Shown one piece after another: positions 5,289 to 59,148 of a stretch of DNA of 64,000 nucleotides (position 1 is the first letter of the stretch; the number at the start of each line of letters is the position of its first letter). Source of the stretch: Candidatus Tayloriibacteriota bacterium. Lineage in GTDB: Bacteria; Patescibacteriota; Minisyncoccia; Phycocordibacterales; PALSA-1337. The translations under genes and the position numbers were made by a program. Location: contig JACRJP010000004.1 in assembly GCA_016215455.1 (NCBI GenBank), positions 155,787 to 219,786 of the forward strand, in the 5' to 3' direction. The notes beneath the pieces were generated by a model. It saw nothing but the letters and a program-made list of their open reading frames with translations, searched no databases and had not been told where the DNA came from.

Positions 5289-5741
5289 CTATCGAACAGC
5301 AGTAATAGAAGGATTAATTTCTCCCGTTGAACTTGCAGTAATACGCCCACGAGAATCCTGGTAGATAACGTATCCCGTATCATAGTCTGTTGTCGTTGCG
5401 AAATGAGCACCCGGTAAACTTGGATCAAACGGTACAACCGAAATATAGTCAGGTACGATACATGTAGCAAGATCAAACCCTCCTGGGAATTTTATTGGCG
5501 TTGATGTCGATGGCAACATCGTCTGATTTCCTCTACAAACTAGTATTCCTTGATTCTCAGACATATTCTGACTAACCGCATTTACAATTGCACTCACATT
5601 ACTCATACGCTGTGCATCTCGTGCAAGCTTAAACTGTCGAGCAGGATTCACAGCAACAAGAGCGACAGATGACAGGATTGCAATAATACCAATCACAATA
5701 AGAACTTCGAGCAAAGTAAAACCTCTTTTTTTATTTTTCAT
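5289..5741 (-). CDS. Type IV pilin / pseudopilin (prepilin-type N-terminal cleavage/methylation domain)
   Basis: N-terminus MKNKKRGFTLLEVLIVIGIIAIL carries the class III signal-peptide motif G-F-T-L-L-E. Confidence 0.65.
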   Translation of the reverse strand: MKNKKRGFTLLEVLIVIGIIAILSSVALVAVNPARQFKLARDAQRMSNVSAIVNAVSQNMSENQGILVCRGNQTMLPSTSTPIKFPGGFDLATCIVPDYISVVPFDPSLPGAHFATTTDYDTGYVIYQDSRGRITASSTGEINPSITAVR

Positions 5742-10035: not shown

Positions 10036-10827
10036 ATGGAAACACCTCCCACTCTGGCATCTCTTTTGGGTCCAATCTCCCATGAAATTTCATTTTGTAT
10101 CGTGGGTGGTCCACCAGCAGGTGGTGGATCTCTTCGAGGTGAATTGGTTGCTGGGGCCTGTCGAGACCTTCATGGAAACTTGTTGATCGGTGTCGACTTC
10201 ATCGACATCAGGCCACACATCATCGAACCTCACGTTCGTGATCAAACACCTCTTGGGCTTGAGTTTCTTGCCCACATGGCCAAACAAAAAAACGGGGGTC
10301 TTCAACCGGATACCCCTATCGCCAAAGGGCTCGCAGGCAAAATCATTGAACATCACGAAAAAGGAGTTCGACAGATTGTCTTGCGTGGATACCCACGTAA
10401 CACATTTCAGGCAGGAGAGTTGATCAGCGTTGGTGCGCCAATCAAGACGGTGTTGTTTCAACGAGATCTTGAAGAGTGCAAACGCAACTTCAACAATCCT
10501 TCTCGTCGTGCGGCAAGTCGGGATGATGACGCTGTGGTTCAACAATTGGTCGGGAGATTCGAAAACACATGGCTCAAGGAGACTCTCCCAGCACTAAGGA
10601 AACTGCGCCGGCACGCTCTTAGTCGAGATGGCTCGACTTATCACGAACGGAAAACTCCACCGACGGGACCTGATCTAGCAGCTGACATTCTGTTTCTGCT
10701 CCAACATGGACTGACAATGAGCACCGAAACACTCATTCAAATAATCGCCAATCTGGCGAATAACGAACATCCTGCTGGTCAAAAATTACGACTCTGCACG
10801 GAAGAAGATCGCCGACGGACACTATAA
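10036..10827 (+). CDS. Adenylate kinase (NMP kinase) family homolog with degenerate P-loop (GC-rich island)
   Basis: The P-loop reads IVGGPPAGGGS in place of GxPGxGKGT, so the Lys is missing. VLRGYPRNTFQAGEL matches the adenylate kinase segment LLDGFPRTxxQAxAL. RDDDAVVQQLVGRFEN resembles the LID / C-terminal region. GC is about 52%. Confidence 0.45.
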   Translation: METPPTLASLLGPISHEISFCIVGGPPAGGGSLRGELVAGACRDLHGNLLIGVDFIDIRPHIIEPHVRDQTPLGLEFLAHMAKQKNGGLQPDTPIAKGLAGKIIEHHEKGVRQIVLRGYPRNTFQAGELISVGAPIKTVLFQRDLEECKRNFNNPSRRAASRDDDAVVQQLVGRFENTWLKETLPALRKLRRHALSRDGSTYHERKTPPTGPDLAADILFLLQHGLTMSTETLIQIIANLANNEHPAGQKLRLCTEEDRRRTL

Positions 10828-10997: not shown

Positions 10998-11894
10998 ATG
11001 CCTAAGAAAAAATCCAACAAAGAAGAGAAACCGAATTCTCTTTTACTCGTCGCACTATTCCTCCTAATTGGAATCGTGCTCATATGTATACCTTTCATTG
11101 GAAATCTTTTGGGACCAACACCTCCCCGCCCACTAACAGCGTCAGAAATTCACGAAAAAGCTCTAGGCTTGGGATTGATCGGTGCTCCCCCGCACATTGA
11201 AGAACGTCACGTCTCCATCAGCAGTCATTCTCACGCATACGGCAGGAATGGAGACATTCCCGTCCATATCGTATCTCGCACCAATTCGACAGAATCATGG
11301 AAATTGGTAGGAACAGGAACCCTCCTCGGTAAATACACAAACCACGTGCTTACTGCCTACCATGTATTCGAGGATCATGCGGGACAATATGGGTATCGAC
11401 ACATCGGTCCCAACGAGTTTACTGGGAATGAGAAAGTCGTTCCCATCATCTCAGTCAAGGACGATGAAGGAAAAGGAAGCGATGTTGTTATTAGTATATC
11501 TGATCCAACTCGTAGTGAATTTCCGGTATTGACTGTGCCCCGCTCAAATAGCATTCCTAATGGATTTGATGCCGATCAGACCTATATGATCGACACGATT
11601 CAACGGGACATATCGTTCTCCACCTACCCTCATCGAAGCATTAGCACGTTCGTAAAGACAAAAATGACTGAGGCGGGTGCAAATTATGTCTTCATTAACT
11701 GGGTAGCAATGCCAGCTGAGAGTGGAACGTCAGCAATACTTGAAGGTGAGGATTCAAACAGTTATGTAGTCATCATTCGAGGGCAAGCCTTGCCTAAAGA
11801 ATTTTACGACAAACTTTCAGAAGAGGTTCAGCAAACCCTGTCATGGACACCAGAAAAGATGTATGCGGTAGGTAACTTCATTCGCATCGATTAA
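10998..11894 (+). CDS. Membrane-anchored trypsin-like (S1) serine protease-like protein
   Basis: N-terminal TM helix. Candidate catalytic triad context: His in LTAYHV, Asp in GSDVVISI, Ser in AMPAESGTSA (GDSGGP-like). Confidence 0.35.
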   Translation: MPKKKSNKEEKPNSLLLVALFLLIGIVLICIPFIGNLLGPTPPRPLTASEIHEKALGLGLIGAPPHIEERHVSISSHSHAYGRNGDIPVHIVSRTNSTESWKLVGTGTLLGKYTNHVLTAYHVFEDHAGQYGYRHIGPNEFTGNEKVVPIISVKDDEGKGSDVVISISDPTRSEFPVLTVPRSNSIPNGFDADQTYMIDTIQRDISFSTYPHRSISTFVKTKMTEAGANYVFINWVAMPAESGTSAILEGEDSNSYVVIIRGQALPKEFYDKLSEEVQQTLSWTPEKMYAVGNFIRID

Positions 11895-13949: not shown

Positions 13950-14804
13950 TTGATGAAATTTGTTCTGCCACTCATTTCTCTGGCTCCACTTCCCTTATTT
14001 GACCTCGATGGCGTGCTCAGAAAAATCCATGAGGCACACTTCACTGGAATCGAAGTTTTGCTTGGCCCAAAAGTGGACCATGCCAAAATCCGCACTCTGG
14101 CACAAACTCACGGTCTCAGTATCAATTGGCACGAAATCTGGTCTCTCACGGACAATCCGACTCACCACGTCAACTATCTCTTGGCGGCTTTAGGAAGAAT
14201 CCCTTGGAAGACCCATCCCCTCAACAGTCAACTTCCCCTAGCGCTCAGCGAGCCTGTTGTCTGTTATGGACATCGTATAGAAGAAGTTCTAGGATACCGC
14301 GACACTAAGCTCCTGTGGCTCCAAACTTGCAAGGTTATGAGCCGGCACTTGCCCTACAAGGAGTTTGTAAAACTTGTCCAAAGATATCGTCTCCCAATCG
14401 TCTTCGATACCCAACATGTCCTTGAATGGATGTGCGACGCCAATGGAGTTACAGAACTCGGTCGACTTCATTCCTCTGAAGAACTCCAACGTCTCCTTCT
14501 TAAAGCATGGGATGACCTCAGTCCCTACACAGAAGAAATCCATGTGGTTAACTTCAAACCACAAGATGGCCACACTAGGGGACGCAACATTTTCTTAAAC
14601 GAAGGAGGTGTCCTCAAGCTCAGAGAATTCGGTCGTGTGGTCAAAAAGAGTGACTGGAACGGTACAATAACCCCTGAGATCGCTCCTGCACACTTCTCCA
14701 CCTTAAGGATTCCTGGTGTTCCCATCAATCTACTGTGGGAGTCGGAACATCTCGGACATCGACTTCTTGAGTTGCGAGAAATCGTAGGGGGTATATTTTC
14801 CTAA
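13950..14804 (+). CDS. Sugar phosphate isomerase/epimerase-like (xylose isomerase-like TIM barrel) protein (GC-rich island)
   Basis: LPIVFDTQHV and EEIHVVNF resemble the metal-ligand motifs of the AP_endonuc_2 TIM-barrel family. GC is about 50%. Confidence 0.35.
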   Translation: MMKFVLPLISLAPLPLFDLDGVLRKIHEAHFTGIEVLLGPKVDHAKIRTLAQTHGLSINWHEIWSLTDNPTHHVNYLLAALGRIPWKTHPLNSQLPLALSEPVVCYGHRIEEVLGYRDTKLLWLQTCKVMSRHLPYKEFVKLVQRYRLPIVFDTQHVLEWMCDANGVTELGRLHSSEELQRLLLKAWDDLSPYTEEIHVVNFKPQDGHTRGRNIFLNEGGVLKLREFGRVVKKSDWNGTITPEIAPAHFSTLRIPGVPINLLWESEHLGHRLLELREIVGGIFS

Positions 14805-26267: not shown

Positions 26268-26774
26268 ATGCCTCACGACGCAACAACAGTAGCGGAAGGA
26301 CCGCTAGCTCCCGTCAAAGTGTTCGCGATCACATGTCGCGATCCGAGATTCAAACCCTTCTTTTTGAAACTCCTTGAGGGAATCACAGAAGGGATCACGA
26401 ATGGCTACTTCCGACTGACACAGTTTGGAGGAATTGCTCACCTGAGTGAAAACCTCCCTATCAGTCGCCGCTTCGCCCGATCCATCACCGATGAGATGGT
26501 CATGGGCTGTGGCTTGATGAAACCCGAGGAGCTTGTCCTCGTAACTCATCAGAACTGCGCCGGTTGCAAGACCCTCAACTACATCACAGACGGTGAAGAG
26601 GATGCGGTATTCCAGAAACGAAAACTGGTGGCCGCCACACGGAAACTCCTTCCTCTCGCCCGTCGTTGCGACACCCTCGCGACGATCAGATGTTTCCATG
26701 TGTATGCGAACGGCACATGGGAGGAATTGGCTCCGACTCCCGTAAAACGGCGTCGAAAGAAATCTAAGGCTTGA
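26268..26774 (+). CDS. Hypothetical protein with a CxxC motif (GC-rich island)
   Basis: 168 aa at about 53% GC. THQNCAGC motif and a basic C-terminal tail. No family recognised. Confidence 0.4.
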   Translation: MPHDATTVAEGPLAPVKVFAITCRDPRFKPFFLKLLEGITEGITNGYFRLTQFGGIAHLSENLPISRRFARSITDEMVMGCGLMKPEELVLVTHQNCAGCKTLNYITDGEEDAVFQKRKLVAATRKLLPLARRCDTLATIRCFHVYANGTWEELAPTPVKRRRKKSKA

Positions 26775-26803
26775 CCGAAGAATTTCAACAATTTTTATTC
26801 AAC

Positions 26804-26832
26804 AAAAAACCGACATAGTATGTCGGTTTTTT
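26804..26832. terminator. Bidirectional rho-independent terminator (perfect 13-bp stem AAAAACCGACATA / TATGTCGGTTTTT)
   Basis: Hairpin flanked by an A-run and a T-run between the convergent genes ending at 26774 and 26845. Confidence 0.6.
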
Positions 26833-26844
26833 GTTGTGTTGAAA

Positions 26845-28086
26845 TTAGTAGTTCTTCAATCGATTAATACGATCATGTTGACGAATCTTTTCGTGAGCCT
26901 TAGCTTCAATCTGACGAATACGTTCACGAGTCACTCCGAATTCCTTCCCCACTTCCTCAAGTGTATGTGTAATACCGTCAATCAAACCATGACGCATCTC
27001 AAGAATCTTTCGTTCCTTAATTGAAAGATCATCAAGAATCTCACGTACCTGATCACTCAAAATACGTCGAGATGATTCTTGATCCGGTGAAAGAATCTTA
27101 TCATCAAACAAAAAGTCACCAAGAGTAGATCGTCCTTCATCACTATCATCACCTACTGGAGCTTCAAGAGAAACAGTATCCTGATCAATCTTTTCGATCT
27201 GATATATCTTATCAACATCCAATCCCATTTCTGTTGCAATTTCTTCTGCAAGAGGTTCACGACCAAGGTCCTGACTCAAACGTCGCACTACCTGCTTGTA
27301 CTTCGCTATAGTTTCAACCATGTGTACTGGAACTCGAATAGTTCGAGACTGATCAGCAAGCGCTCGAGTAATTGCCTGACGGATCCACCATGTTGCGTAT
27401 GTTGAGAATTTGAAGCCCTTTGTCCAGTCGAATTTATCAACTGCTTTGAAAAGACCAAGGTTACCTTCCTGAATGAGATCAAGAAGTGTGAGGTCGGGTG
27501 ATCGGCCAACATACTTCTTTGCAATAGAAACAACGAGACGTAGGTTTGCTCGAGCAAGAAGATTCTTTGCTTCACTATCACCAGCAATGATGCGACGAGC
27601 CAACTCCTTTTCCATAGCAGCTGATACAAGAGAATACTGACCAATCTCTTTAAGGTACATCTGGATCGAATCGTATGAAGAGTCTGCTGAACGAGCACCG
27701 TAGGTATACTTCTTTGTTTGTACTGGTTCAGGCTCTACTTCGAGAAGTCCACCTCCTTCGAGAACATCAACCCCTGCTTCATTAAACTTTGAGTACAAAT
27801 CATCGAGGAATGTAATATCAGTTTCGATTGTTGGAAATTCCTTAAGAATTTCATCAAATGTCACAAAACCTCGCTCCTTACCTTTGACGATAAGTCGATT
27901 TGCCTTTGTTTCAAATTCTTTTGCCTTTTGTGCACCTGCGAGCTTTTTTACTGGCGCAGTTTTAGGAACCTTGTTTGTAGGCTTCTTATTTTTTGATATT
28001 GGTTTCTTTTGTTGTGCCACCTTTTTATTGAGAACTTTCGCTTTCACCACCTTCTTCTTCGAATGTGTTTTTGTTGTGCGCTTCAT
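26845..28086 (-). CDS. rpoD: RNA polymerase sigma factor RpoD/SigA
   Basis: Regions 1.2 to 4 present, including YATWWIRQAITRA (region 2.4/3) and a region 4 HTH. Confidence 0.93.
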   Translation of the reverse strand: MKRTTKTHSKKKVVKAKVLNKKVAQQKKPISKNKKPTNKVPKTAPVKKLAGAQKAKEFETKANRLIVKGKERGFVTFDEILKEFPTIETDITFLDDLYSKFNEAGVDVLEGGGLLEVEPEPVQTKKYTYGARSADSSYDSIQMYLKEIGQYSLVSAAMEKELARRIIAGDSEAKNLLARANLRLVVSIAKKYVGRSPDLTLLDLIQEGNLGLFKAVDKFDWTKGFKFSTYATWWIRQAITRALADQSRTIRVPVHMVETIAKYKQVVRRLSQDLGREPLAEEIATEMGLDVDKIYQIEKIDQDTVSLEAPVGDDSDEGRSTLGDFLFDDKILSPDQESSRRILSDQVREILDDLSIKERKILEMRHGLIDGITHTLEEVGKEFGVTRERIRQIEAKAHEKIRQHDRINRLKNY

Positions 28087-28138: not shown

Positions 28139-29965
28139 CTAGAAGATCTTTGCACTCTTTCGAGTTGATATCTCTCTCATCTTTTCAGTTAAATCCTTAC
28201 ACATATTGAGTAATTCGGTCGCTTTCGATGCATCCTTATCACGCTCAGCCCCTGACAACGCCACCATAGTCTCTGTAAACTTGAGTTTTAGAATATCTTC
28301 TTCCAAATTCAAAAGAAGTTCCTCGACTGATGCCTTAAAACCTTTTGCCGCTGCTGGATCACCAAAACGAGCCTCCGCTTCAAGAATGAGTTCACTTGTT
28401 CGAAGACCAAACTGTGCTGATAGATCAGAATATGAAGCGCCAAGTATACGTTCAAGTTCACTACGAAGATTCATCGGATCAATATTAAAAATATCTTTTC
28501 GTTCTTTTTTCTCTTCAAGGAAAAATACTACACCAAATAAATGTCTGAGAATTGCATCCTGCTTATCAAACTTTTGCTTTGCTTGTGTTACAAAAGTTGA
28601 AGAAGACGGTGTACCTGAAGTGATCGCTTTTGCTTGTTTTGAAATAACATCTTTAAGATCCTCGCGGATAGCATCTTCTCCAAGACCAGCAACATCATGT
28701 ATCTTTCGAACGTACTGATCACGTTGCATTGCTCCATCAAGCCGAGCAATATAAGGAAGTACTCTTGTTTTGATTTCCTTTGGTAAATCTCTTTTAGCAA
28801 CACTTTTAACTACCGTATCAAGTTCGAAATCAATGACATGCTTTGCTTCACGCAAAACCTGTTTCCATTGTTCTTTATCAGCAAGTACAAGGTCAGCGGG
28901 GTCTTTTCCTTCAGGAAGATCAGCGATTTTTACTTCCATCCCCAATGACAAAGCAATTTGAGCTGAACGCATTGCTGCATTTCTTCCCGCTTTATCAGAA
29001 TCAAATGCCAAAATGATATTTGGAGAAAGTCGACGAACAATACCAAGATTGTTGACGACATTTTCTTCAGTAACAACTGAATCTTTAAGGGCTGTACCTG
29101 AAACAGCTACAGTGTTTTTAATTCCAGCCTGATGTGACAATGTGAGATCCATCTGACCTTCAACAAGAATCGTATAGTTTCGAGCACGGATCTCTGTCTT
29201 TGCTTTATCAATACCAAAAAGTACTTCTGATTTTTTGAAAAGTATCGTATCAGGACTATTGAGATATTTTGCTGACTTACCATCATCATGAACAATACGC
29301 CCTGAAAATGCTATGACACGACCACTCGAGTCTGATATAGGGAAAATGATACGGTCTCGAAAACGGTCATATGGGCGAGGTTCTTCCCCTCTTCCTATAG
29401 CCTTTCCAGAGCCTCCCTCAGCCTTTTCTGGTCTCTTTACCAAACCTGCCTGTTCGAGCTCTATATCGCTAAATTTGAGCGTTTTAAGGTGGGTATACAG
29501 GCTTCTCCACTCATTCGGAGCATATCCAATACGAAAATGCTCAATCGTAGCGTCTGTGAGACCACGACTATGAATATATGCTCGAGCTTCAGAATTAGTC
29601 TTAAGACGACTCTGAAAAAAATCAGTTGCTGCCTCCATGACTGCAAGCATTCTTTCTCGGGTATCCTTACTCTCTGATTTTTCAAAAGTAAGTTCAACTC
29701 CAGCTTTCTGAGCTAATAACTTGAGTGCGCCCATGAAATCCAAACCTTCAAACTGTTGAACGAAACTAAAAATGTCTCCCTTCGCATTACAACCAAAGCA
29801 ATAGTATGTTCCCCGATCCGGTGACACAAAAAAAGAAGGTGTCTTTTCGTTATGGAATGGACACTTCCCTTTGAGACTACTTCCTGTACGATCAAGCTTT
29901 ACATACTCACCAATGAGGTCAGCAATGTTAAGTTTCTCTTTAATCTTTTCTACCGGCGTCGACAT
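28139..29965 (-). CDS. dnaG: DNA primase DnaG
   Basis: CHC2 zinc finger CPFHNEKTPSF...CFGC, a Toprim domain, and the classic dnaG-rpoD gene order. Confidence 0.92.
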   Translation of the reverse strand: MSTPVEKIKEKLNIADLIGEYVKLDRTGSSLKGKCPFHNEKTPSFFVSPDRGTYYCFGCNAKGDIFSFVQQFEGLDFMGALKLLAQKAGVELTFEKSESKDTRERMLAVMEAATDFFQSRLKTNSEARAYIHSRGLTDATIEHFRIGYAPNEWRSLYTHLKTLKFSDIELEQAGLVKRPEKAEGGSGKAIGRGEEPRPYDRFRDRIIFPISDSSGRVIAFSGRIVHDDGKSAKYLNSPDTILFKKSEVLFGIDKAKTEIRARNYTILVEGQMDLTLSHQAGIKNTVAVSGTALKDSVVTEENVVNNLGIVRRLSPNIILAFDSDKAGRNAAMRSAQIALSLGMEVKIADLPEGKDPADLVLADKEQWKQVLREAKHVIDFELDTVVKSVAKRDLPKEIKTRVLPYIARLDGAMQRDQYVRKIHDVAGLGEDAIREDLKDVISKQAKAITSGTPSSSTFVTQAKQKFDKQDAILRHLFGVVFFLEEKKERKDIFNIDPMNLRSELERILGASYSDLSAQFGLRTSELILEAEARFGDPAAAKGFKASVEELLLNLEEDILKLKFTETMVALSGAERDKDASKATELLNMCKDLTEKMREISTRKSAKIF

Positions 29966-30010
29966 GTAGCAATTATACAGAACTACGGAGGTTAATAAAG
30001 ACTAGCGGAC

Positions 30011-30037
30011 AAGCAATATTTGAGCTACAAAATAAAA
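30011..30037. repeat. 27-nt direct repeat copy A (AAGCAATATTTGAGCTACAAAATAAAA); copy B is at 31664-31690
   Basis: The two copies differ at a single position (G/A) and bracket the GC-rich gene at 30085-31515 together with its promoter and terminator. Confidence 0.6.
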
Positions 30038-30063
30038 GACCCGCGGCACGTCAGTGTCGCGGG
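30029..30063 (-). terminator. Rho-independent terminator of the 30085-31515 gene
   Basis: 10-bp GC-rich stem (CCCGCGGCAC / GTGTCGCGGG with one G-U) with tetraloop GTCA, followed on the minus strand by CTTTTATTTT. Confidence 0.5.
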
Positions 30064-30084
30064 CTGCTTTGTGGAAAGATTCCC

Positions 30085-31515
30085 TTAGGGTCTAACCATG
30101 CGATAGAACTTGAGGTCACTTTCCGTATCGAACTTGTAACCACGAAGACCATCCTCAGCCATGGAAAGCGTTTCGATGAGACTCCATGACTTGAGGTCAG
30201 GCGAGCCTTCGAGACGATAGGCTGTATCCGGCTGTCCCGACATGAGAATGTTCACGTAAGTGAAACCTGCGGGAGCCAGACTGATACTGACCGTCGCGGG
30301 CCACACGTAAGGATCGAGGTTCATGCCGTTAAGCGTCGCACGCGTAATGGGTCCAACAAAACCTGTTGCTGGAATTCCGTTAGCAGCTTGAAATGCTTTG
30401 ACTCCTGCTTGGGTAAGTTCACCGAAGTAAGGGCTGCCATCCACCTCATACGTCTCGAGGGAAACACCCAAGAACCGTTGCAGGATGAGCACGTCATAAC
30501 CAACACTGCCGACAGTCAGATTCGTCGCAAAAAGGAATCGTGCAAGCGACCTGACTACGATACCTTGATTGGCATTGTTGATCGTCGGCAGAAGTTGATA
30601 TCCCAACGCGTCCGTAGCTGTTCCAAAAGAACCACATTCCGCACTCAGGGTTACCCCTGTCGGGAAATTCGTTCCGAGGATACCCGTCACGATGAACTGA
30701 TGAATCCCCTTCGGAATCTTGATATCGCCATTGAAGACGACTCCGCTTGAAACCTTGTTGTCAAAGGGTATTGCATCAAAGGATCCACCGATCTGCGTGC
30801 CATTTTCGTCGGTCAGGGTAATTGATTGAGTGATAGCCCTCTCACCCCCCGACAAATTGAACGCGACAGAAAAATACGGAATTGTGACATCCGTGCCCTC
30901 CACGGTTACCGTAAACTTGGCAAGCACAACAGGATTTGTGCTTCCTTGCACCGATGTAGGCGCAGTGGTATTTTGAATGTCGAGCTTTCCTACAACGACG
31001 TTGGTATCGATCGTGTAGAAATTTCCACGAATCGGGAACGGAGTTGCAAATGTGACCCGATCAGACAACTCAGTGAAATATCCATCAGCCGCAGCTCCGA
31101 CGACTTCGAGTCCAACATTTTGCCCTTGGAAGAGCGTGAGATCGGAAGCGAATTGGGCGGAGATGACTACGGTATTGGTCTCACCCTGCGTGAGAAATAT
31201 CGGGCCCACGAGTATGGGAGAGTGAGGAAGAAATCCAAAAGGACCTCGACTTATCTCCTTCAGGTCACTTCCGACATAAATGCCGGTCATAGGATTTCCA
31301 TTCCATAGTGAGTTTCCCATTGGTTGCACTGCAAGATACAGCGGCGGAGGGAACTTTTTGTCGCTCTCAGTCACGAGGACCGTGAGCATGGGCACAATAG
31401 CCCCCTGGGCAGCCGACATAAGTGGTGGTTGATTGGTCGTCTCCAGGATGGAGAACGTGGTGGCATAGACACGGAGGAAGCTCACAAGAGCCAGGACCAA
31501 CAATGAGATCTTCAT
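30085..31515 (-). CDS. Secreted protein with C-terminal peptidoglycan-binding (PG_binding_1-like) domain (GC-rich island)
   Basis: Start at MKISLLVLALVSFLRVYA (signal peptide). The segment VGYDVLILQRFLGVSLETYEVDGSPYFGELTQAGVKAFQAANGIPATGFVGPITRATL matches the PG_binding_1 consensus. Confidence 0.5.
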   Translation of the reverse strand: MKISLLVLALVSFLRVYATTFSILETTNQPPLMSAAQGAIVPMLTVLVTESDKKFPPPLYLAVQPMGNSLWNGNPMTGIYVGSDLKEISRGPFGFLPHSPILVGPIFLTQGETNTVVISAQFASDLTLFQGQNVGLEVVGAAADGYFTELSDRVTFATPFPIRGNFYTIDTNVVVGKLDIQNTTAPTSVQGSTNPVVLAKFTVTVEGTDVTIPYFSVAFNLSGGERAITQSITLTDENGTQIGGSFDAIPFDNKVSSGVVFNGDIKIPKGIHQFIVTGILGTNFPTGVTLSAECGSFGTATDALGYQLLPTINNANQGIVVRSLARFLFATNLTVGSVGYDVLILQRFLGVSLETYEVDGSPYFGELTQAGVKAFQAANGIPATGFVGPITRATLNGMNLDPYVWPATVSISLAPAGFTYVNILMSGQPDTAYRLEGSPDLKSWSLIETLSMAEDGLRGYKFDTESDLKFYRMVRP

Positions 31516-31591
31516 GGTTTTCAGTGAACAGACGTTATAGTGATATTCAAGGCTTCTACGCATAGGCGTAAAAATCAAGAATCTGCCAAAT

Positions 31592-31621
31592 ATTATACCA
31601 TATAATACTACATATAGTCAA
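31592..31621 (-). promoter_or_regulatory. Putative promoter TTGACT-18nt-TATAAT for the 30085-31515 gene
   Basis: Reverse complement of 31592-31621 reads TTGACTATATGTAGTATTATATGGTATAAT. Confidence 0.4.
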
Positions 31622-31663
31622 TCTTCTAGAAGTAACAAAAACCATCACTGATTGTCTGTAAAG

Positions 31664-31690
31664 AAGCAATATTTAAGCTACAAAATAAAA
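31664..31690. repeat. 27-nt direct repeat copy B (AAGCAATATTTAAGCTACAAAATAAAA)
   Basis: Matches 30011-30037 at 26 of 27 positions. Confidence 0.6.
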
Positions 31691-31701
31691 ATCGAGGACC
31701 A

Positions 31702-31974
31702 CTAAGGCACTCTTCCTAACACAACCACGAGAAAGGCATCAATGAAACCGAGACAGAGGCTCTTGGGCAAACTCACCTTTCCATAGCCAAAGCAATGTAA
31801 ACTCGACCATCGTGCCATGAAGGCAACAAAGCCGGCGATGATATGCGTGAGGACCAAAAGCGGCACCAAGAGCTCACGGTTTTGCTTGCCGCACAAAACA
31901 GCAAGACCCACCATCAAACCAACAACATACACGATGACCACACGGTCACCTCTATTTAAGGGAATTATTCTCAT
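31702..31974 (-). CDS. Hypothetical small membrane protein
   Basis: About 90 aa with three hydrophobic helices. The ORF is open to 32034; the start is uncertain. Confidence 0.2.
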   Translation of the reverse strand: MRIIPLNRGDRVVIVYVVGLMVGLAVLCGKQNRELLVPLLVLTHIIAGFVAFMARWSSLHCFGYGKVSLPKSLCLGFIDAFLVVVLGRVP

Positions 31975-32082
31975 GGGAGTAGCAAAGAATTCTAGAGATG
32001 TAATATCATATATATAAAATAAGTTCAACAACAAAAAACAGCCATCTCTGGCTGTCTTTTGTTAAACGTATATTTTCTAAAA

Positions 32083-35000
32083 CTATTCCTCAATCACCTC
32101 TTCCCCTCGTGGTTGTGCTGCTTCAATCATCTTCTGCTTTGGACTTCCCTTAAATCCACTACCAGCAGGGATAAGACGACCGATAATAACGTTTTCCATG
32201 AGACCTGAAAGATGATCATCTGAACCACGGAGCGCACTGTGGATGAGAACTCGGTTTGTGTGCTGGAATGATGCAGCTGCCAACCAACTCTTTCGAGAAA
32301 GTGAGAGCTCCGTAATACCCATCACTACACCTTCAGTTTTTGCCTTCTCACCACCCGCCTCAACCGCTGTTGCATTCTCATCTTCAAGAAGACCTGAGTC
32401 AACGATTTCACCCATTGCGAAGTCAGTAGCTCCTGACTCAACAACTCGCTGTCGTGAGAACATCTGTCGTACGATAATTTCGATATGCTTTCGTGACACT
32501 GTTTCTCCCTGAAGTTCATAAATCTTTGAAACTTCCTTAATAACATATTCACGAGCCTTTTCCTTACCACCATACTTGAACACCTCATCAATTTCAGCAG
32601 AACCGTCAGTAATGATATCTCCCTTCTTTACATGTTCACCAACCTTAACGAGTGGCATACGCTTGTAATGGAATGAGTATTCAACTTCTGAAGCTCCCTT
32701 CTTTGCTTTAGCTCGATCTTCGAGATCAGCGATAACCTTAATGATTTTTTCTTTTCCGAGATCCTTCACTTCAGAAACTGTACCATCAACAGTAGCAACT
32801 ACTGCAGGATTCTTTGGCTTTCGCTTTTCGAAGATTTCTTCAACTCGAGGGAGACCTGAAGTAATGTCTCCGCCAACAGACGCTGTACCTCCGGCGTGGA
32901 ATGTACGCATTGTGAGCTGTGTTCCTGGTTCACCGATCGCCTGAGCAGCAACTGTACCTACAGCTTCACCGAGATCAACCGGCTTGTTCTTACCAAGATC
33001 AAGTCCGTAACACTTTGCACATACACCTCGAACACTTCGACAAACAAGAGGTGAGCGAACTGCAACTTCACTCACACCTGATTCTTCAATCTTCTGTGAA
33101 TCCGCCTTTGAAAGAAGGTGTCCCTTCTTAAAGAGAACATTTCCTTTCGCGTCAGCAATATCAGTTGCAAGATTTCGTCCTCGAATGTTCTTTGAGAGAG
33201 CGATTTCAATACCTGATGCTGTTTCCTTTCGGATACTAATAGATTCTTTTGTACCACAATCATCTTCCGCAACCATCACGTCCTGTGCCACAACGAAGAG
33301 CTTTCGAGTAAGGTAACCGGCCTTAGCAGTGTTAAGTGCTGTGTCAGTAAGACCCTTTCGAGAACCGTGAGTTGTAATAAAGTATTCAAGAGGTGTAAGA
33401 CCTTCCTTTGAACATGAGAGAATTGGGAATTCAATTGTATCTCCAGAACCTGAAGCAATAAGACCCTTCATACCCGCCATCTGTGTAATCTGAGCAAGAG
33501 AACCTCGAGCTCCAGATGTCACCATGTCGTAGACTGATCCCATTTTATTAAGAGAAGCTGGAATGAGTTTTTCAACATCACCCTTAGCCTTGTGCCAAAT
33601 TTCAACATTCTTTCGAAGTCGTTCTTCTTCTGTAAGGAGACCTTCGTTGTACTGATGCATAACGAGATCTGATTGAACCTTTGCCTTACCAATGATATCG
33701 AACTTTCCTTGTGGAATTTGTACATCATCAATACCCCAAGTTGTACCTGAGTATGTTGCGTACTTGAAACCGAATGCCTTTACCTTGTCGAGAATCGCTG
33801 GAATAGCATTTACTCCGTAACGACCGATCATGTCATCAATTGATGCTGAAAGTTTCTTTCGATCAATATCTTTATTGATGAATGGGTAATCAACTGGAAG
33901 GATCTGGTTGAAGAGGATTCGTCCAACTGTTGTTTCAAAAAGTTTACCTTCAAATTCTGCAAATTTTTCTCCTGCTTCTGGTCGAACCTTAATCTTTGCT
34001 CGGAGAGAAATATCACCGAAACTATGTGCGAGAATTGCACTTTCAGGACTTTCAAACACCTTACCTTCCCCCTTATCACCATCAACTGATTTTGTGATCC
34101 AGTAACAACCGAGAACAATATCAAGAAGTTTTGAAGCGATTGTAGGATCTCCGTTACCTGGCTTCAAGATGTTCTTATCAGCAGCCATGATTTCCTTTGC
34201 TTCCATCTGAGCTTCTGTTCCGAGTGGTACGTGAACGGCCATCTGGTCACCGTCGAAGTCAGCGTTGAACGCTGTACATACAAGTGGGTGAACTTGAATA
34301 GCGTTACCTTCAATGAGTACTGGTCGGAATGCCTGAATACCGAGTCGGTGAAGTGTTGGAGCACGGTTCAAGAGAACGTACTTACCAGCAATCACTTCTT
34401 CGAGAATTGCCCACACCTCTGGAATACCATCGTCAATGAGACGACCTGCTCCACGAATGTTGAACGCTAATTCTTTCTTCAAGAGTCCTGAAATAACGAA
34501 TGGTCGGAAAAGTTCCAATGCCATATGCTTTGGAAGACCACACTGGTCGAGAGCAAGTTCTGGACCCACAACGATCACTGATCGTCCTGAGTAGTCAACT
34601 CGCTTACCAAGCAAGTTTGCTCGGAAGAGACCTCGCTTACCCTTCAAGTTATCTGAGAGAGATTTGAGTGCTCGCTTCTGTGCCTGTGTACCTGCTGATA
34701 CTGCACTGTTTCCGTGTCGGATAGAGTTGTCGATAAGGGCATCAACAGCTTCCTGGAGAATACGCTTCTCGTTTCGGAGAATAACGTCAGGGGCCATGAT
34801 CTCCTTCAACTTCAAGAGACGATTGTTTCGGTTAATAACACGTCGATAGAGATCGTTAACATCTGATGTTGCATAACGTCCTCCATCAAGAGCAACCATA
34901 GGTCGAAGTGCTGGTGGAATAACTGGAATTCGAGTAAGGAACATCCATTCTGGACGAGCTCCTGACTTAATCATTGCCTTCAATACTGCAAGTCGCTTAT

Positions 35001-35757
35001 TAATCTTTTCTCGATCAAGTGAACTTGCTTTTTCAAGCTCTTTTTCAAGTCGTTCAACAAGAACCTTAAGATCAGTCTTCTTCAAAACATCGAAGATTGC
35101 TTCTGCACCAATTCCTGCTTCAAAGAGTACACCGTACTTCATTGAATACTTATGGAATTGAACTTCATCAAGAACAAGACCTTCATTAAGAGATTCGATC
35201 TCTCGACGAGCATTGAGAACGAGTTCCTTCAATGTTTCCTTTGTCTTATCATCCTGTGCTGTTTTTACCTTTGACTTATATTCTGAATCGAGATCCTTAA
35301 GGAAACGTTCTTTTTCTTCGTGATTAACCTTCGTAACGATGTATCCAGCAAAGTACACAACCTTTTCAAGTTCTGCTGCTGACATACCCATTACAAGACC
35401 AATACGAGATGGCATGTTGCGAAGGAACCAGATATGAGAAACTGGTGTCGCAAGCTCAATATGTCCCATTCGCTCACGTCGAACAATTGATCGAGTTATT
35501 TCAACTCCACACTTTTCACAAACAATTCCCTTATAGCGAATACCGCGGTACTTTCCACAGTAACACTCATAATCTCGATCTGGACCGAAGATCTTTTCAT
35601 CAAACAAACCACTCTTCTCACTTCGCTGTGTACGATAGTTAATCGTCTCAGGCTTTGTAATTTCTCCGAATGACCACTCAAGAATGCGCTCAGGTGAAGC
35701 TAGCGACAATCCTACGAGTTCAAAGTCATTTGGTTCTGAATGTTTTTGGTTTATCAT
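32083..35757 (-). CDS. rpoC: DNA-directed RNA polymerase subunit beta'
   Basis: 1224 aa. Zinc-binding CYCGKYRGIRYKGIVCEKCG and the catalytic NADFDGD motif. Confidence 0.97.
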   Translation of the reverse strand: MINQKHSEPNDFELVGLSLASPERILEWSFGEITKPETINYRTQRSEKSGLFDEKIFGPDRDYECYCGKYRGIRYKGIVCEKCGVEITRSIVRRERMGHIELATPVSHIWFLRNMPSRIGLVMGMSAAELEKVVYFAGYIVTKVNHEEKERFLKDLDSEYKSKVKTAQDDKTKETLKELVLNARREIESLNEGLVLDEVQFHKYSMKYGVLFEAGIGAEAIFDVLKKTDLKVLVERLEKELEKASSLDREKINKRLAVLKAMIKSGARPEWMFLTRIPVIPPALRPMVALDGGRYATSDVNDLYRRVINRNNRLLKLKEIMAPDVILRNEKRILQEAVDALIDNSIRHGNSAVSAGTQAQKRALKSLSDNLKGKRGLFRANLLGKRVDYSGRSVIVVGPELALDQCGLPKHMALELFRPFVISGLLKKELAFNIRGAGRLIDDGIPEVWAILEEVIAGKYVLLNRAPTLHRLGIQAFRPVLIEGNAIQVHPLVCTAFNADFDGDQMAVHVPLGTEAQMEAKEIMAADKNILKPGNGDPTIASKLLDIVLGCYWITKSVDGDKGEGKVFESPESAILAHSFGDISLRAKIKVRPEAGEKFAEFEGKLFETTVGRILFNQILPVDYPFINKDIDRKKLSASIDDMIGRYGVNAIPAILDKVKAFGFKYATYSGTTWGIDDVQIPQGKFDIIGKAKVQSDLVMHQYNEGLLTEEERLRKNVEIWHKAKGDVEKLIPASLNKMGSVYDMVTSGARGSLAQITQMAGMKGLIASGSGDTIEFPILSCSKEGLTPLEYFITTHGSRKGLTDTALNTAKAGYLTRKLFVVAQDVMVAEDDCGTKESISIRKETASGIEIALSKNIRGRNLATDIADAKGNVLFKKGHLLSKADSQKIEESGVSEVAVRSPLVCRSVRGVCAKCYGLDLGKNKPVDLGEAVGTVAAQAIGEPGTQLTMRTFHAGGTASVGGDITSGLPRVEEIFEKRKPKNPAVVATVDGTVSEVKDLGKEKIIKVIADLEDRAKAKKGASEVEYSFHYKRMPLVKVGEHVKKGDIITDGSAEIDEVFKYGGKEKAREYVIKEVSKIYELQGETVSRKHIEIIVRQMFSRQRVVESGATDFAMGEIVDSGLLEDENATAVEAGGEKAKTEGVVMGITELSLSRKSWLAAASFQHTNRVLIHSALRGSDDHLSGLMENVIIGRLIPAGSGFKGSPKQKMIEAAQPRGEEVIEE

Positions 35758-43413: not shown

Positions 43414-45582
43414 CTAAAGAACAGTCTCTGACGAAGTTGCAACTTCCTCCACAGTTGATACAGGCTCAGGAGTTGGGGTTACTTCTTCAATTGTTGTTAC
43501 AGGAGCTGGAATTACTTCCTCAGTAGTTGTTGCAGGGGTTTCAGACGACACTTCAGGTTTTACCAACTCAACTAAAGTAGTAGTACCAACATCTATTGCT
43601 ACAGGTGTCGTTGTAGATGTATCTGGTATGACGACAATTTCTGGAGTAGCCACAGTGTTACTTACAACATTTGCGCTGCCGCACTGTCCCATTCTCTTAA
43701 ACCAATCACCGTTACGGATAGTAAAACAGTATGTATCTCCTGTTGCTTCATCTTTCATTTCAATACCACCAGCTGACAAACTCTTAGTTGTAACATTATT
43801 ACTTATTACCTTATCAACTTCTATCGTAGAAGTTGCTGTATACGTCATATGACCCTTAAGAAAATCTATCTGTGACTGGAGTTCCTGCATCCCCTTTACA
43901 ATATATGGAATAACTTGAGCATACAGAACTGATTTAATTCCACTAGCATCTGTTCTCACGAGTTCAGGAAACACTCGTTCAACATCCTGAGCCAAGAAAC
44001 CAACCTGTTGATCAGAATCAGGATTTGATTTCCAATTAAAATACACTGATCGTAATGTGAGAAGTTTACCTAACGATGATTTTGGTAGTTCTGTTATATT
44101 CGTTTTGAGATTTTCATCAGATGTACATGAGAAACCTGTACCAGCAACAACAGTACACTGAGTACCTCCTGACCCTTCAAAACGTGCCACGTTGGTCGTT
44201 GTGGTTGTTGAAACATGAAGGCGATATAAAGGAGACGCTATTCCAATACCCAAACTTCCACGAGCTGCAGAAGTACCTTCATCAACATAGTCTGAATACA
44301 AGACATTACCGATATTCATACCATTCGATCGATTAGTAAATCCTGTACCCGCACCAATTAAAATATTATTTGATCCAGTTGTAAGATTGTTACCTGCACT
44401 AGAACCAATTACCACATTACTACTTCCTGTATTAATATCGTCCGCAGCAGAAGAACCGATGACAACATTGTACCCACCGGAAGAAATATACTCTCCCGAT
44501 TCACTACCGATGGCCACGTTTCCTTTTCCTGAAGTCAGACGAGTTAGTGCCTGATATCCAATAGCAGTAGAATTGTAATTATACCCAGACCCTATACCAG
44601 CCATTGCTTCATACCCTATTGCCACCGAATAATTACCTGATCCACTTTCGAGATTATTTGCTGCGTATGATCCTACAAATACCGCACTATTAGGTACATA
44701 TGTCTGGCTTGTATTATTACTATATATGTTATCACCAATCAAAACACTATAACCATTACCGCTGTCGAGATACGGTGCCACATTATCTCCTACCAAAGTC
44801 ATACCATACATACTACTAGTAATAGAACCTAACCCTGTCCTTCCTATTAAGGTTACATCTTGTTCTGGAAAAACTCGAAAAACAGGACTTGATGAAGCAG
44901 TTATAAAGCTTCCATTTGTTAACTCTAATCTTCCACTGACCGTTGTTGTTCCAACAACAGCTAGAGCTGATACAGGTGAAGTTGTTCCTATACCCAAAAA
45001 CCCAGTCACTGTTACATCATCTGAGAATGAAGTATCTCCAGAAAACGAAGCTCCTGTTACAGAAGGACTTGCGATTGTTGAATTAGAAATTGTAGCACCG
45101 CTGATGTTTGATACGTTTGCAGTAATTGCCTGACTTATCGAACGACGATCTGAATCATTCTGTCGTGTTTGATGAGCTCGTAATGCAGTAAGTTCGTTTC
45201 GAAACTGTTGCATCGCCATAGCATCAACCGTATTAAATACTTGCGTAATTGGTGATACGTAAATTGGTTTTTCTATTTCCCGTACTAACGTCTCACGAAT
45301 CACAGTTGTTGTAGCGTATAACACAGGAGAGGTAGACGAAGCTGTACTTGTCGCACTTAAATCACTCAATATCGCTTGAGATGTCTGTAGAGCACTAACG
45401 GTATTTGCTACAGAAGCAGCAGATCCTTCTGACAATACATTACGTACAACACCGAATATAGATGTGATTTTTTTACCAAGATCTTCAAATGAAAAAGCAT
45501 GGGTAACGGATGGTACAAGACACACGACCATTGCAATAGCTACAACTCGACGTATCAACTTTGTATTATTAAATATTCTCAT
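43414..45582 (-). CDS. Secreted tail-fibre-like surface protein: Hep_Hag-like Gly-rich repeats plus Peptidase_S74 intramolecular chaperone domain plus Thr/Pro-rich tail
   Basis: Signal peptide MRIFNNTKLIRRVVAIAMVVCLVPSVTHA. Repeats such as NVVIGSSAADDINTGSSNVVIGSSAGNNLTTGSNNILIGAGTG. S74-like segment SDENLKTNITELPKSSLGKLLTLRSVYFNWKSNPDSDQQVGFLAQDVERVFPELV. Confidence 0.55.
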   Translation of the reverse strand: MRIFNNTKLIRRVVAIAMVVCLVPSVTHAFSFEDLGKKITSIFGVVRNVLSEGSAASVANTVSALQTSQAILSDLSATSTASSTSPVLYATTTVIRETLVREIEKPIYVSPITQVFNTVDAMAMQQFRNELTALRAHQTRQNDSDRRSISQAITANVSNISGATISNSTIASPSVTGASFSGDTSFSDDVTVTGFLGIGTTSPVSALAVVGTTTVSGRLELTNGSFITASSSPVFRVFPEQDVTLIGRTGLGSITSSMYGMTLVGDNVAPYLDSGNGYSVLIGDNIYSNNTSQTYVPNSAVFVGSYAANNLESGSGNYSVAIGYEAMAGIGSGYNYNSTAIGYQALTRLTSGKGNVAIGSESGEYISSGGYNVVIGSSAADDINTGSSNVVIGSSAGNNLTTGSNNILIGAGTGFTNRSNGMNIGNVLYSDYVDEGTSAARGSLGIGIASPLYRLHVSTTTTTNVARFEGSGGTQCTVVAGTGFSCTSDENLKTNITELPKSSLGKLLTLRSVYFNWKSNPDSDQQVGFLAQDVERVFPELVRTDASGIKSVLYAQVIPYIVKGMQELQSQIDFLKGHMTYTATSTIEVDKVISNNVTTKSLSAGGIEMKDEATGDTYCFTIRNGDWFKRMGQCGSANVVSNTVATPEIVVIPDTSTTTPVAIDVGTTTLVELVKPEVSSETPATTTEEVIPAPVTTIEEVTPTPEPVSTVEEVATSSETVL

Positions 45583-50333: not shown

Positions 50334-50897
50334 TCAATCTCGAAGAATGTCGAGCCGATGCAAAACGGTCCCAAAACTTTCTTGTTCCGGACCAGAGAGG
50401 TATTTCAGATAGGCGTTGGCCGCCTGAATGAACCCCTCCCTGTGATTTGCAAAACACCACCGCATAAAGACCTCAAGAGGAACTGGGCGTGCCCAGATGT
50501 AATCTCCATCAGGCTCCCTGCGCCAATCAGCTTGATTGATGTCAGGGAAAACATGTGAGGTTGCGGTCGGCAATGTCGTGAAGACTGGCGTAATATTGCT
50601 TACCCGCCACTCCGTGACGAGAAAGAAATACTTGGTGTGACTCGCGTAACTGCGATCACAAAAGGCTTCCGAGGAACTGATGACCGAGACACCTGTCTCG
50701 TTCAAGAGCTCTCTCGCTAAACAATGTTGAGGAGATTCTGACTCCTCCTTCATCCCCGAACCTCCGGGAAGTTTGACCTCATCGGTGAACCGGCTACTTG
50801 TAACCCCGATTACCGTCCATGTGGCGCCAATCTTGGCAAACATGGCCCCGGCGGCAAAAAACGTCGACGAATCCTTTTTCTTTGATTTCATTGGCAT
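50334..50897 (-). CDS. Nudix hydrolase (GC-rich island)
   Basis: Nudix box LPGGSGMKEESESPQHCLARELLNETGV. GC is about 52%. Confidence 0.65.
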   Translation of the reverse strand: MPMKSKKKDSSTFFAAGAMFAKIGATWTVIGVTSSRFTDEVKLPGGSGMKEESESPQHCLARELLNETGVSVISSSEAFCDRSYASHTKYFFLVTEWRVSNITPVFTTLPTATSHVFPDINQADWRREPDGDYIWARPVPLEVFMRWCFANHREGFIQAANAYLKYLSGPEQESFGTVLHRLDILRD

Positions 50898-52237: not shown

Positions 52238-55200
52238 ATGTCTTCGCGATTTATCCATCTCCACACCCACAGCCACTACTCTCTCTTGAATGCGCTACCA
52301 AAAATCGATGAACTCATTGATGAAGCAAAGAGCTATGGTATGCATGCACTCGCATTGACTGACGCAGGTAATCTCTACGGAGCGGTTGAATTCTACAAAA
52401 CATGCAAAAAGAAAGAAATCAAACCCATTATCGGCATTGATGCATACGTTGCAGTACGTTCACGTAAAGATATGCAGGCGGGTATCGACAATCGCCGTAA
52501 CCGACTTGTTCTTCTCGCTAAAGACTACAAAGGATATCAAAATCTTGTAGCGCTTGTTACTCTTTCACACCTTGAAGGTTTCTACTACAAACCTCGTATC
52601 GATGCCGAGCTTATTGAAAAATATTCCGAGGGACTTGTGGCTATCGCTCCTTCATTCTCAAGTGACATCAGTGCTGCTCTCAAAGCAAAAGACATTGAAA
52701 AAGCAAAAACACTCATCGCTTTTTACACCAAGGTATATGGTCATGAAAATTTTTATATCGAAATTACCCGACACCCTGAAATTGATGGACATGAAGGTTT
52801 GATGAATCAACTCATTAAACTAGCGGGAGAAACAGGGACACAACTCGTTGCGGGACATGATATTTATTATCTCAAACCAGAAGATAAGATTGCTCGAGAA
52901 ACACTAACCCTCGTAAATACTCACGGAGATATCAGTGAGCGAGTTAATACTGATAACGATGATGACTACTCTTTCATTTCTCCTCTTGAAATGGAAAAAC
53001 GCTTCATGGATATTCCTCAAGCGATCGCTAATACCGTAAAAATTGCGGACATGTGTAATCTTGATCTTACGCTTGGTAAATGGATTTTTCCAAACTATAT
53101 TGTCGAAAGTGGTCTCTCATATGACGATGAACTTCGTCGTATTGCTTATGAAGGTATTCCAAAACGAGGGCTTGAGCCAACACCAGAAATTGTTGAGCGA
53201 CTTGAATATGAACTTAAGGTCATTAAAGATAAGGGATACCCTCAATATTTTCTTGTAGTATCAGATCTCCTCAAATACGCTCATGACCACGGAATCCTCA
53301 CCAACATTCGAGGTTCAGTTGCTGGTTCACTCACCACATATGTAACAGGAATTACCAATGTAAATCCACTTGAATACAAACTCCCCTTTGAACGATTTCT
53401 CAACCCTCAGCGACCTTCAGCACCTGATATCGACATGGACTATGCCGATAACCGTCGAGACGAAATAATTGAATACACCCGCAAGAAATACGGATACGAT
53501 AAGGTGGCTCAGATTGGTACATTCGGTACCATGATGGCCCGCGGTGCTGTTCGTGATGTCTCTCGTGCTATGGGCTACGACTATGAAGTTGGTGACCGAA
53601 TATCAAAACTCATTCCAATGGGTGCACAGGGTTTTCCAATGACAATTGATCGAGCACTTGAAGAAGTAAACGAATTAAAAGAAATCTATGAAAAAGATGA
53701 GACTGCAAAGCGTATCATCGACATGGCAAAAAAGATTGAAGGTTGTGCTCGTCACATCTCTGTTCACGCAGCTGGAGTGGTGATTGCTCCCCGCCCTCTC
53801 ATTGAATATGTACCTCTGCAGTACGATACAAAAGGTGAACAAAAGATTATTACTCAATACGACATGCACGCTGTAGGTGAAGATGGTATCGGACTTCTTA
53901 AATTCGACTTTCTTGGTATCAAAAACCTTTCAATTCTTGCTGATGCTGTTGATCGTGTAAAAAAGATTGAAAAAATCGATGTCGACATTGAAAACATTCC
54001 TCTCGATGATAAAAAAACATTTGAAATGCTTGCTCGTGGCGAAACGATCGGCCTTTTCCAGTTGAACGGAAGTGGAATGACCAAATTCCTTGTTGAACTC
54101 AAACCTTCAACAATCCACGATATCAATGCTATGGTCGCCCTCTATCGACCAGGACCGATCGAATCAATTCCTCAATATATTGAACGAAAACACGACCCAT
54201 CAAAAATCGAGTTCCTTGATCCACGGATGAAAACTATCCTCGAACGTTCATATGGTGTTATCACCTACCAAGACGACGTTATGATGATTGCTATCGAACT
54301 CGGTGGATATTCTTGGCTTGAAGCTGACAAGCTCCGTAAAGCGATGGGTAAAAAGATTCCAAAAGAAATGGAAGAACAGAAAGGAAAACTTTTTGATGGT
54401 CTCATAAAAAATGGCATGAAGGAAGCGAAAGCTAAAAAACTCTGGTCGCTCATTGAACCATTCGCAGCGTACGGATTCAACAAAGCTCACGCTGCAAGTT
54501 ATGGTCGTGTTGCCTACCAAACTTCATATATGAAGGCGAACTTCCCTGCTATATATATGTCTGCAGTACTCACCGCCGACTCAGGTGATGTAGAAAAGAT
54601 TGGTGAAATAATCACAGAATGTAAGCGTATGGGTATTCCGATTCTTCCACCAGACGTTAATGAAAGTTTCAGTCAGTTCACTGTGATCCGAGGAGAAATT
54701 AATCCTACAACTGGCGAAAAAGAAAAAGACCGTATTCGTTTCGGACTTGTTACTATCAAAAACTTCGGACAAGGTATTGCTACTGCCATCATTGATGAAC
54801 GTAAAAAAGGTGGGGCCTTTACCTCACTCATCAACTTCCTTGATCGAGTCAAAGATCGTAACCTTAATAAAAAATCTCTCGAATCACTCATCAAAGCAGG
54901 AGCACTCGATTGCTTTGGAGTTGAACGTGGAAAACTTCTTGGAAATATTGAAACTCTCCTTAATTACAACAAAGAGCATGATCGAACTCCAGCAGGACAA
55001 GATTCTCTCTTTGGTCTCATGTCTGACACATCAACTCTCCCAACTCTCAAACTTGCTGATGTCCCCCCTATCTCGCCTCGCGAAGCTCTCGTCTGGGAAA
55101 AAGAACTCCTTGGTCTCTATATTTCAGGTCACCCTCTCGATCGCTATCGAGCAATTATTGAGAAGCGCGATATGAACATCGTCAAAGCAAAAGAATTACT

Positions 55201-59057: not shown

Positions 59058-59148
59058 ATATTTGTTTCCTATATTAGTCATGGTAAGCATTATATATTAT
59101 ATTTACTGAAAAGTCAATAGCACTAAAAATAGCTTACACAAAGGGTCT

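Follow-up and report, generated by a model that had tools for sequence, protein, structure and literature searches.

The 64,000-nt stretch of DNA analyzed here (hereafter the window; GenBank assembly GCA_016215455.1, contig JACRJP010000004.1, positions 155,787 to 219,786 of the forward strand) belongs to a metagenome-assembled genome (MAG) of Candidatus Taylorbacteria, a member of the Parcubacteria in the Candidate Phyla Radiation (CPR). Between rpoC and dnaG it carries a gene for a peptidoglycan (PG)-binding protein that is bracketed by two copies of a 27-nt direct repeat, and the make-up and origin of this repeat are the subject of this analysis. DnaG, the PG-binding protein and a 90-aa open reading frame (ORF) correspond to NCBI MBI5126799-801 (locus tag HZA80_03495). 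The locus lies on the minus strand throughout, and the order of transcription is rpoB, rpoC, terminator, 90-aa ORF, repeat copy 2, promoter, leader, 476-aa ORF, hairpin, repeat copy 1, dnaG and rpoD. The features, in that order, are as follows.

32083-35757, minus strand: rpoC
32038..32055, minus strand: terminator hairpin of rpoC, of the core-gene type, with TTTTTTGTTG after it (-22.3 kcal/mol, z = -5.3)
31702..31974, minus strand: orphan ORF of 90 aa, hydrophobic, with a G+C content at third codon positions (GC3) of 0.55 (0.549); hypothetical protein HZA80_03495
31694..31712, minus strand: weak hairpin, a marginal terminator, that overlaps the 90-aa ORF's stop codon; GA and the copy-2 U-tract come next
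31664..31690, minus strand: repeat copy 2, coding strand TTTTATTTTGTAGCTTAAATATTGCTT, starting 11 nt past the stop codon of the 90-aa ORF
31592..31621, minus strand: predicted sigma-70-type promoter of the PG gene, TTGACT, 18-nt spacer and TG-extended TATAAT, matching 11 of 12 consensus positions
30085..31515, minus strand: ORF of 476 aa, the PG gene (NCBI 'peptidoglycan-binding protein', MBI5126800.1)
30040..30063, minus strand: GC-rich terminator hairpin of the PG gene, 10 bp of which 8 are G-C, followed by TCTTTTATTTTG
30011..30037, minus strand: repeat copy 1, coding strand TTTTATTTTGTAGCTCAAATATTGCTT, 46-72 nt upstream of the dnaG ATG
29963..29977, minus strand: dnaG start region, where TATAAT precedes the ATG by 6 nt and a Shine-Dalgarno sequence is lacking
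29965-28139, minus strand: dnaG, with rpoD next

The original prediction had placed the pair AAGCAATATTT(G/A)AGCTACAAAATAAAA at 30011-30037 and 31664-31690, and both the coordinates and the identity (26/27) proved exact. The 27-mer gave 2 matches at up to 3 mismatches in the window, compared with a mean of 0.00 in 100 dinucleotide-preserving shuffles, and the next-best match in the 64 kb had 8 mismatches. It is also the longest local exact direct repeat of the window (15 + 11 nt, with every other one at 14 nt or less). No third copy was found in 74 kb, made up of the window (searched at up to 9 mismatches and by local alignment) and 10 kb more of the same contig; a degenerate candidate behind the rpoC terminator was rejected, as its score was no better than background. 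The repeat is a genuine duplication by descent and not a product of chance. Its copies lie 1,626 bp apart (1,653 bp start to start) and enclose exactly one minus-strand transcription unit, in which the promoter TTGACT-18-TATAAT, the signal-peptide ORF and the GC-rich hairpin terminator were each found as described in that prediction. The distance from the end of copy 2 to the -35 box of the PG-gene promoter is 42 nt, and the promoter position implies a leader of about 70 nt. At the other end the enclosed unit lacks its U-tract, for it is copy 1 that gives the PG-gene terminator both its U-tract and a 17-nt tail.

On the coding strand the repeat reads TTTTATTTTGTAGCTYAAATATTGCTT, that is, TTTTATTTTG followed by GTAGCTYAAATATTGCTT. 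Each copy starts 2-3 nt past a hairpin, and its first 8-10 nt are a terminator U-tract (T4-5AT2-4). A duplicated terminator module, which had been offered as an alternative to an att-like site, is therefore close to what is seen, as both copies open with a U-tract directly behind a hairpin. The layout of a predicted intrinsic terminator (G+C-rich hairpin, then U-tract) is present at copy 1, where the 40 nt holding the 30040-30063 hairpin fold at -17.1 kcal/mol and shuffles average -9.6. At copy 2 the hairpin is weak, with a centroid of -6.9 kcal/mol that is not better than shuffles, and the U-tract after it is GATTTTTATTTTG. Intrinsic terminators do not normally have 17-23 further identical bases past the U-tract, however, and the two hairpins here are unrelated.

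The U-tract is shared far beyond this locus. Of the 15 genes in the window and the further 10 kb whose GC3 is at least about 0.40, 14 are followed by TTTT(T)ATT(T), which lies on the strand of the gene at 8-49 nt from the stop codon, in most cases immediately behind a short, usually weak hairpin; it follows 0 of about 50 lower-GC3 genes (Fisher p = 2.5e-13). Core-gene terminators differ, having an A-tract, a hairpin and then TTTTTTGT. The GC3-rich genes (GC3 0.40-0.65 vs about 0.30) are mostly monocistronic accessory genes, each with its own ATTGACW-17/18-TAnnnT promoter; about 20% of genes in the 74 kb are of this class, which has counterparts in related Parcubacteria. Their coordinates are:

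In the window: 158-631, 3321-3866, 10036-10827, 10998-11894, 13950-14804, 26268-26774
In the window, continued: 30085-31515 (the PG gene), 31702-31974 (the 90-aa ORF), 50334-50897, 61801-62247
In L035: 1760-2182, 2339-3163, 6642-7199, 8864-9295

Beyond the U-tract these units share nothing, except for the PG gene and the 90-aa ORF, which is a second GC3-rich unit with the same 3' tail and lies just outside copy 2. The other adjacent pair (10036-10827 and 10998-11894) has the U-tract in common and nothing more. Since the first 8-10 nt are a generic U-tract, the locus-specific part of the duplication is only the remaining 17 nt, GTAGCTYAAATATTGCTT, or up to about 23 nt in another strain. Whether the 27-mer is a common genome-wide motif thus has a divided answer: the 27-mer as a whole is not, and its first 8-10 nt are. 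The link between high GC3 and the T5AT2-3 terminator is more unusual than the repeat itself, and deserves to be checked on complete genomes.

Three assemblies of the species were compared, namely the window (identical to L001), L002 (99.2%) and L031 (98.7%), recovered by exact look-ups of DnaG, PG protein variants and the 90-aa ORF. Exact look-ups of RpoC and PheT for further strains gave no return. The PG gene and both repeat copies were present in 3/3 strains (98.7-100% identical), and copy 1 was unchanged across them. Copy 2 has a single polymorphic site, 31675, at which L002 carries the copy-1 base; L002 also differs from the window at 31661 and 31659, and all three changes are toward the copy-1 sequence. 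At 30010 both L002 and L031 differ from the window. The L002 copies consequently match at 27/27 positions, and the repeat can be followed there over 33 nt with a single mismatch. Against an overall divergence of about 1%, three changes inside 17 nt suggest one multi-nucleotide event. This patch is either a longer original duplication that was retained or the outcome of ectopic copying between the copies, and on both readings the copies are homologous by descent. Across the locus the pattern of single-nucleotide polymorphisms (SNPs) is mosaic, with breakpoints that are not at the repeats, which indicates homologous recombination between strains. As a separate observation, rpoC of L031 carries 5 substitutions within 13 nt (window 32353-32365), which look like a short recombined or templated patch akin to that in copy 2 of L002.

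The L002 patch bears on one way in which the repeat might have arisen without any insertion. Two neighboring terminators with T5AT3-4 would already have been in place, and a template switch or ectopic gene conversion would have copied 17-23 nt from one to the other, an event that says nothing on how the gene arrived. Such homogenization would explain why the repeat starts at the generic U-tract; it fits the three changes in L002, all to the copy-1 state and carrying identity past the 27-mer, and it calls for no borrowed terminator, since PG homologs in other genomes carry their own hairpin and T-tract. However, priming on 9-10 nt that is resolved without far-end homology is rare, and ectopic conversion usually concerns longer repeats (rRNA genes, insertion sequence elements, paralogs) than the substrate of less than 35 nt available here. 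The L002 patch may equally well be ordinary conversion between existing 27-nt repeats, and the adjacent pair at 10036-10827 and 10998-11894 has no common sequence past its U-tract. We consider this origin, the main rival to an insertion, rather unlikely, though it deserves to be taken seriously.

Selection on a functional cis-element was also weighed, with the 17-nt tail as a putative site for a regulator or a termination/anti-termination factor, kept before the PG and dnaG-rpoD promoters. Both copies do lie in intergenic DNA upstream of promoters, and the invariance of copy 1 and the single polymorphic site of copy 2 would agree with constraint. Yet the SNP density of the repeats (1 in 54 nt) cannot be told apart from that of the intergenic DNA on their flanks (9 in about 250 nt), the distances are unequal (about -46 to -72 from the dnaG start vs about -79 to -105 from the PG promoter), and conservation of the tail upstream of dnaG does not extend to the closest relative. 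There is neither dyad symmetry nor an Rfam match in the repeat, and an identity this close to perfect over 27-33 nt exceeds what binding sites usually retain. We find a cis-element improbable. A promoter UP-element was dropped because the copies lie at unequal distances from the promoters.

The bracketed gene had been called compositionally foreign. It is GC-richer than its surroundings (GC 0.509 and GC3 0.537, vs a window GC of 0.413 and a mean gene GC3 of 0.34), but 14 other genes in the 74 kb are GC3-rich too, and homologs of the gene are GC-rich elsewhere. Two PG homologs with readable contigs lie at other loci in CPR-like contexts, and both are GC-richer than their neighbors (GC3 0.68 vs 0.31-0.55, and 0.57 vs 0.33). 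High GC3 is therefore a trait of the PG family and of the whole accessory-gene class, and no proof of a recent foreign origin here. The different loci of the family in other CPR genomes suggest that it relocates over evolutionary time.

Gene order in relatives places the PG gene at a junction that has itself moved. In relatives with about 56% DnaG identity, dnaG-rpoD-UvrD is kept downstream, and RNase HII and small ORFs stand upstream in place of rpoC; the order in L026 and L029 is ThrRS, Pol III alpha, RNase HII, two small ORFs, dnaG, rpoD and UvrD. In the window about 21 kb (NusB, RNase III, SMC, S16, TrmD, rpoB, rpoC and others; 30000-51700) separates RNase HII from dnaG. Judged by this comparison of gene order, the junction upstream of dnaG is a synteny or rearrangement breakpoint in this lineage. 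In L029 the ORF immediately before dnaG is one of 49 aa and GC3 0.64 (6719-6868), which has a TTGACA promoter of its own and a GC-rich hairpin followed by TTTTTTTATATT (a T7A tract); the insertion position is the same as in the window and the cargo is different.

We tentatively read the repeat as a local duplication of a terminator tail, produced by an insertion or duplication at the synteny breakpoint upstream of dnaG, and put the probability of this reading at roughly 0.4. The points that speak for an insertion scar are the occurrence of the repeat beyond chance and only at this locus, its register relative to the hairpins, the breakpoint, the small ORF in L029, the relocation of the PG family and the L002 patch. 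We hold insertion as the origin of the repeat, and the mechanism that follows, with the same reserve. The PG unit (spacer, promoter, leader, ORF and hairpin) would have inserted between the terminator of the 90-aa ORF and the dnaG promoter, by single-crossover (Campbell-type) integration of a circular fragment or by a staggered microhomology-mediated insertion. This would have left a copy of the resident tail on each side, consisting of the generic U-tract (T4-5AT3-4) and about 17-23 nt behind it, and the downstream copy would now complete the PG-gene terminator with its U-tract. Later the copies would have been homogenized; to go by the L002 patch they may still be interacting, so that they could mediate a rare loop-out deletion.

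A number of results weigh against an insertion. No empty site (a single repeat without the PG gene) was found among the three strains; the nearest other DnaG (71% identical, L025) is preceded by 162 nt with a terminator hairpin and no recognizable 27-mer, and the relatives at about 56% are non-syntenic upstream of dnaG. The left edge of the repeat coincides with the U-tract motif of GC3-rich genes, which microhomology-primed copying predicts as well, and the GC-rich stretch runs past the repeat into the 90-aa ORF (GC3 0.549), its upstream edge being the rpoC terminator hairpin. Both PG homologs have their own promoter and a complete hairpin and T-tract terminator, and no flanking repeats were found around either of them in their genomes. 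Signs of mobility were likewise lacking. The 48 proteins scanned by Pfam, out of about 49 genes in the window, included no Phage_integrase, Resolvase, Recombinase or DDE/transposase family (rpoC, rpoB, the UvrD-type helicase, the STAS transporter, rpoD and the ORFs 52238-55453, 59586-61679 and 5289-5741 lay outside the scan). ARAGORN found 0 tRNA or tmRNA genes in the window, and the site itself falls between genes, downstream of an orphan ORF; no pair of terminal inverted repeats links the two ends of the unit, and the 27-mer has no dyad symmetry, folding at -1.2 kcal/mol (z = 0.3) on either strand. A target duplication of 27-33 bp, as from a DDE or HUH transposon, would be longer than known target-site duplications and is not typical of any transposase.

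The same searches bear on the att-like site proposed in the original prediction. On this account the unit would be a non-autonomous cassette, comparable to cis-mobilizable elements, that relies for its excision and integration on RecA-independent host functions or on a recombinase gene elsewhere in the genome, with the 27-33-mer as its crossover site. The length of the repeat is typical of attL/attR cores, the unit is self-contained, and GC3-rich single-gene units are numerous in this genome. Integrase-less islands with imperfect direct repeats that still excise do exist: the 13-kb microcin H47 island of E. coli, whose long imperfect repeats comprise four homology blocks, was shown experimentally to excise (PMC5426353). 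It resembles the PG unit in having direct repeats and encoding no recombinase, and recombination between short repeats could delete the unit here too. In contrast, the PG unit is 1.65 kb long with a repeat of 27-33 nt, and no excision product was observed. Islands and prophages that carry an integrase also have direct repeats of tens of bp around atypical intergenic DNA, but here no integrase, tRNA/tmRNA target, inverted-repeat core, empty site or second copy was detected, and the enclosed DNA is one gene of 1.4 kb.

Integron cassettes (attC) and Xer/dif modules (integrative mobile elements exploiting Xer, IMEX; pdif) offer a further comparison, being single-gene units, with a repeat of 27-28 nt close to the length of dif. 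Unlike them, the 27-mer has no paired inverted arms separated by a spacer (neither an attC stem nor the 11-6-11 dif layout) and, by inspection, no ATAA-N6-TTAT-like core; the cassette has its own strong promoter, and no IntI or Xer gene was found in the window. Further copies in other genomes were not forthcoming either. In genome and metagenome collections the 20-nt core gave only single matches in unrelated organisms, none of them beyond chance resemblance; the best, of 25 nt, falls between genes in a strongly AT-rich part of an unrelated contig (the scan of a species-representative collection did not return the source genome itself). Viral contigs had no match to the core, and no viral relative of the PG protein was found. 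An Rfam search found no family at E <= 1. Neither do the other 12 GC3-rich units have flanking repeats of at least 12 nt, all three strains are occupied, and the recombination breakpoints between them do not fall at the repeats. An active att-like site thus seems very unlikely to us, and the claim that the repeats are the footprint of an insertion was borne out in part, as a real duplication bracketing one unit and not as site-specific att recombination. Nothing found suggests that the PG unit, now fixed and functional, is an autonomous mobile element.

A wider variant of insertion would make GC3-rich single-gene units, with their strikingly uniform T5AT2-3 tract, the cassettes of a CPR-specific mode of gene accretion. 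Each new unit would join by recombination at the tail of a terminator already in place, and the PG repeat would be the one junction young enough to show its crossover site. We regard this as a long shot.

The 476-aa protein has a signal-peptide-like N-terminus (MKISLLVLALVSFLRVYA) and a PG_binding_1 domain (PF01471; 35.9 bits vs a cut-off of 23, residues 354-395, E = 8.8e-9, Pfam). A word-indexed homolog search returned full-length matches in the same species only, and an exhaustive HMMER search gave about 10 full-length family representatives at 28-45% identity. The AlphaFold2 model built from the family alignment (mean pLDDT 83.6) comprises the signal peptide, two Ig-like beta-sandwich domains (18-322), the three-helix bundle of PG_binding_1 (340-396) and a C-terminal beta-sandwich (408-474) that carries a conserved SxDLxxW...FFRLVxxP signature. 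Foldseek matched generic tandem Ig-like domains of integrin legs (calf/thigh), PrgB and pilins, and no catalytic domain was found in the protein. The model suggests that the product is probably a wall-tethered, adhesin-like surface protein. Between strains the gene has 10-12 synonymous vs 4-6 non-synonymous differences, a pattern consistent with purifying selection.

The leaders of about 70 nt of the PG gene (31516-31591) and of the two homologs (L032, about 150-230; L033, about 7930-8000) each contain a short palindrome (ACGCCTATGCGT, TGCATTTCATGCA and ATGGGC...GCCCAT), which may be a leader hairpin. The palindromes had no sequence conservation across the PG gene and the two homologs and no Rfam match. 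A common promoter or leader among the PG homologs was rejected, as no conservation was seen.

On either side of the unit, the 90-aa ORF had no homolog in a word-indexed search of 5.8 billion proteins, and the dnaG mRNA is probably leaderless, given a TATAAT 6 nt from the ATG and no Shine-Dalgarno sequence. The same TATAAT-6 nt-ATG layout occurs in the closest relative, L025 (positions 150-165), and this spacing suggests a conserved leaderless dnaG-rpoD mRNA. Further along, between rpoD and a convergent 168-aa ORF, a 37-nt near-perfect palindrome (AAAAAACCGACATAGTATGTCGGTTTTTT; within window 26775-26845) looks like a shared bidirectional terminator, ahead of which the 168-aa ORF additionally has its own TTTTTATT. 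Two more large putative surface proteins, both of low GC3, are encoded at 43414-45582 and 57705-59090 of the window. One has a Peptidase_S74 (endosialidase chaperone) domain, typical of phage tail fibers; the second matches PKD/SprB weakly and contains 64-nt repeats (58033 and 58321).

The finding belongs to a known kind, the repeat-flanked single-gene islet or insertion scar, and for now the repeat is of modest interest, a curiosity of this one locus with a proposed mechanism. Should it be an insertion scar, it would both date and delimit the gain of a surface-protein gene in an uncultured CPR bacterium with a reduced genome, and the adhesin-like PG protein could mediate contact with a host or another cell. 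The repeat also predicts a simple route of gene loss, by loop-out between the copies. The broader pattern may matter more, namely accessory genes with a separate 'dialect' of high GC3 and a T5AT2-3 terminator, which would offer an inexpensive way to mark flexible genes in Parcubacteria MAGs and to approach the question of their origin.

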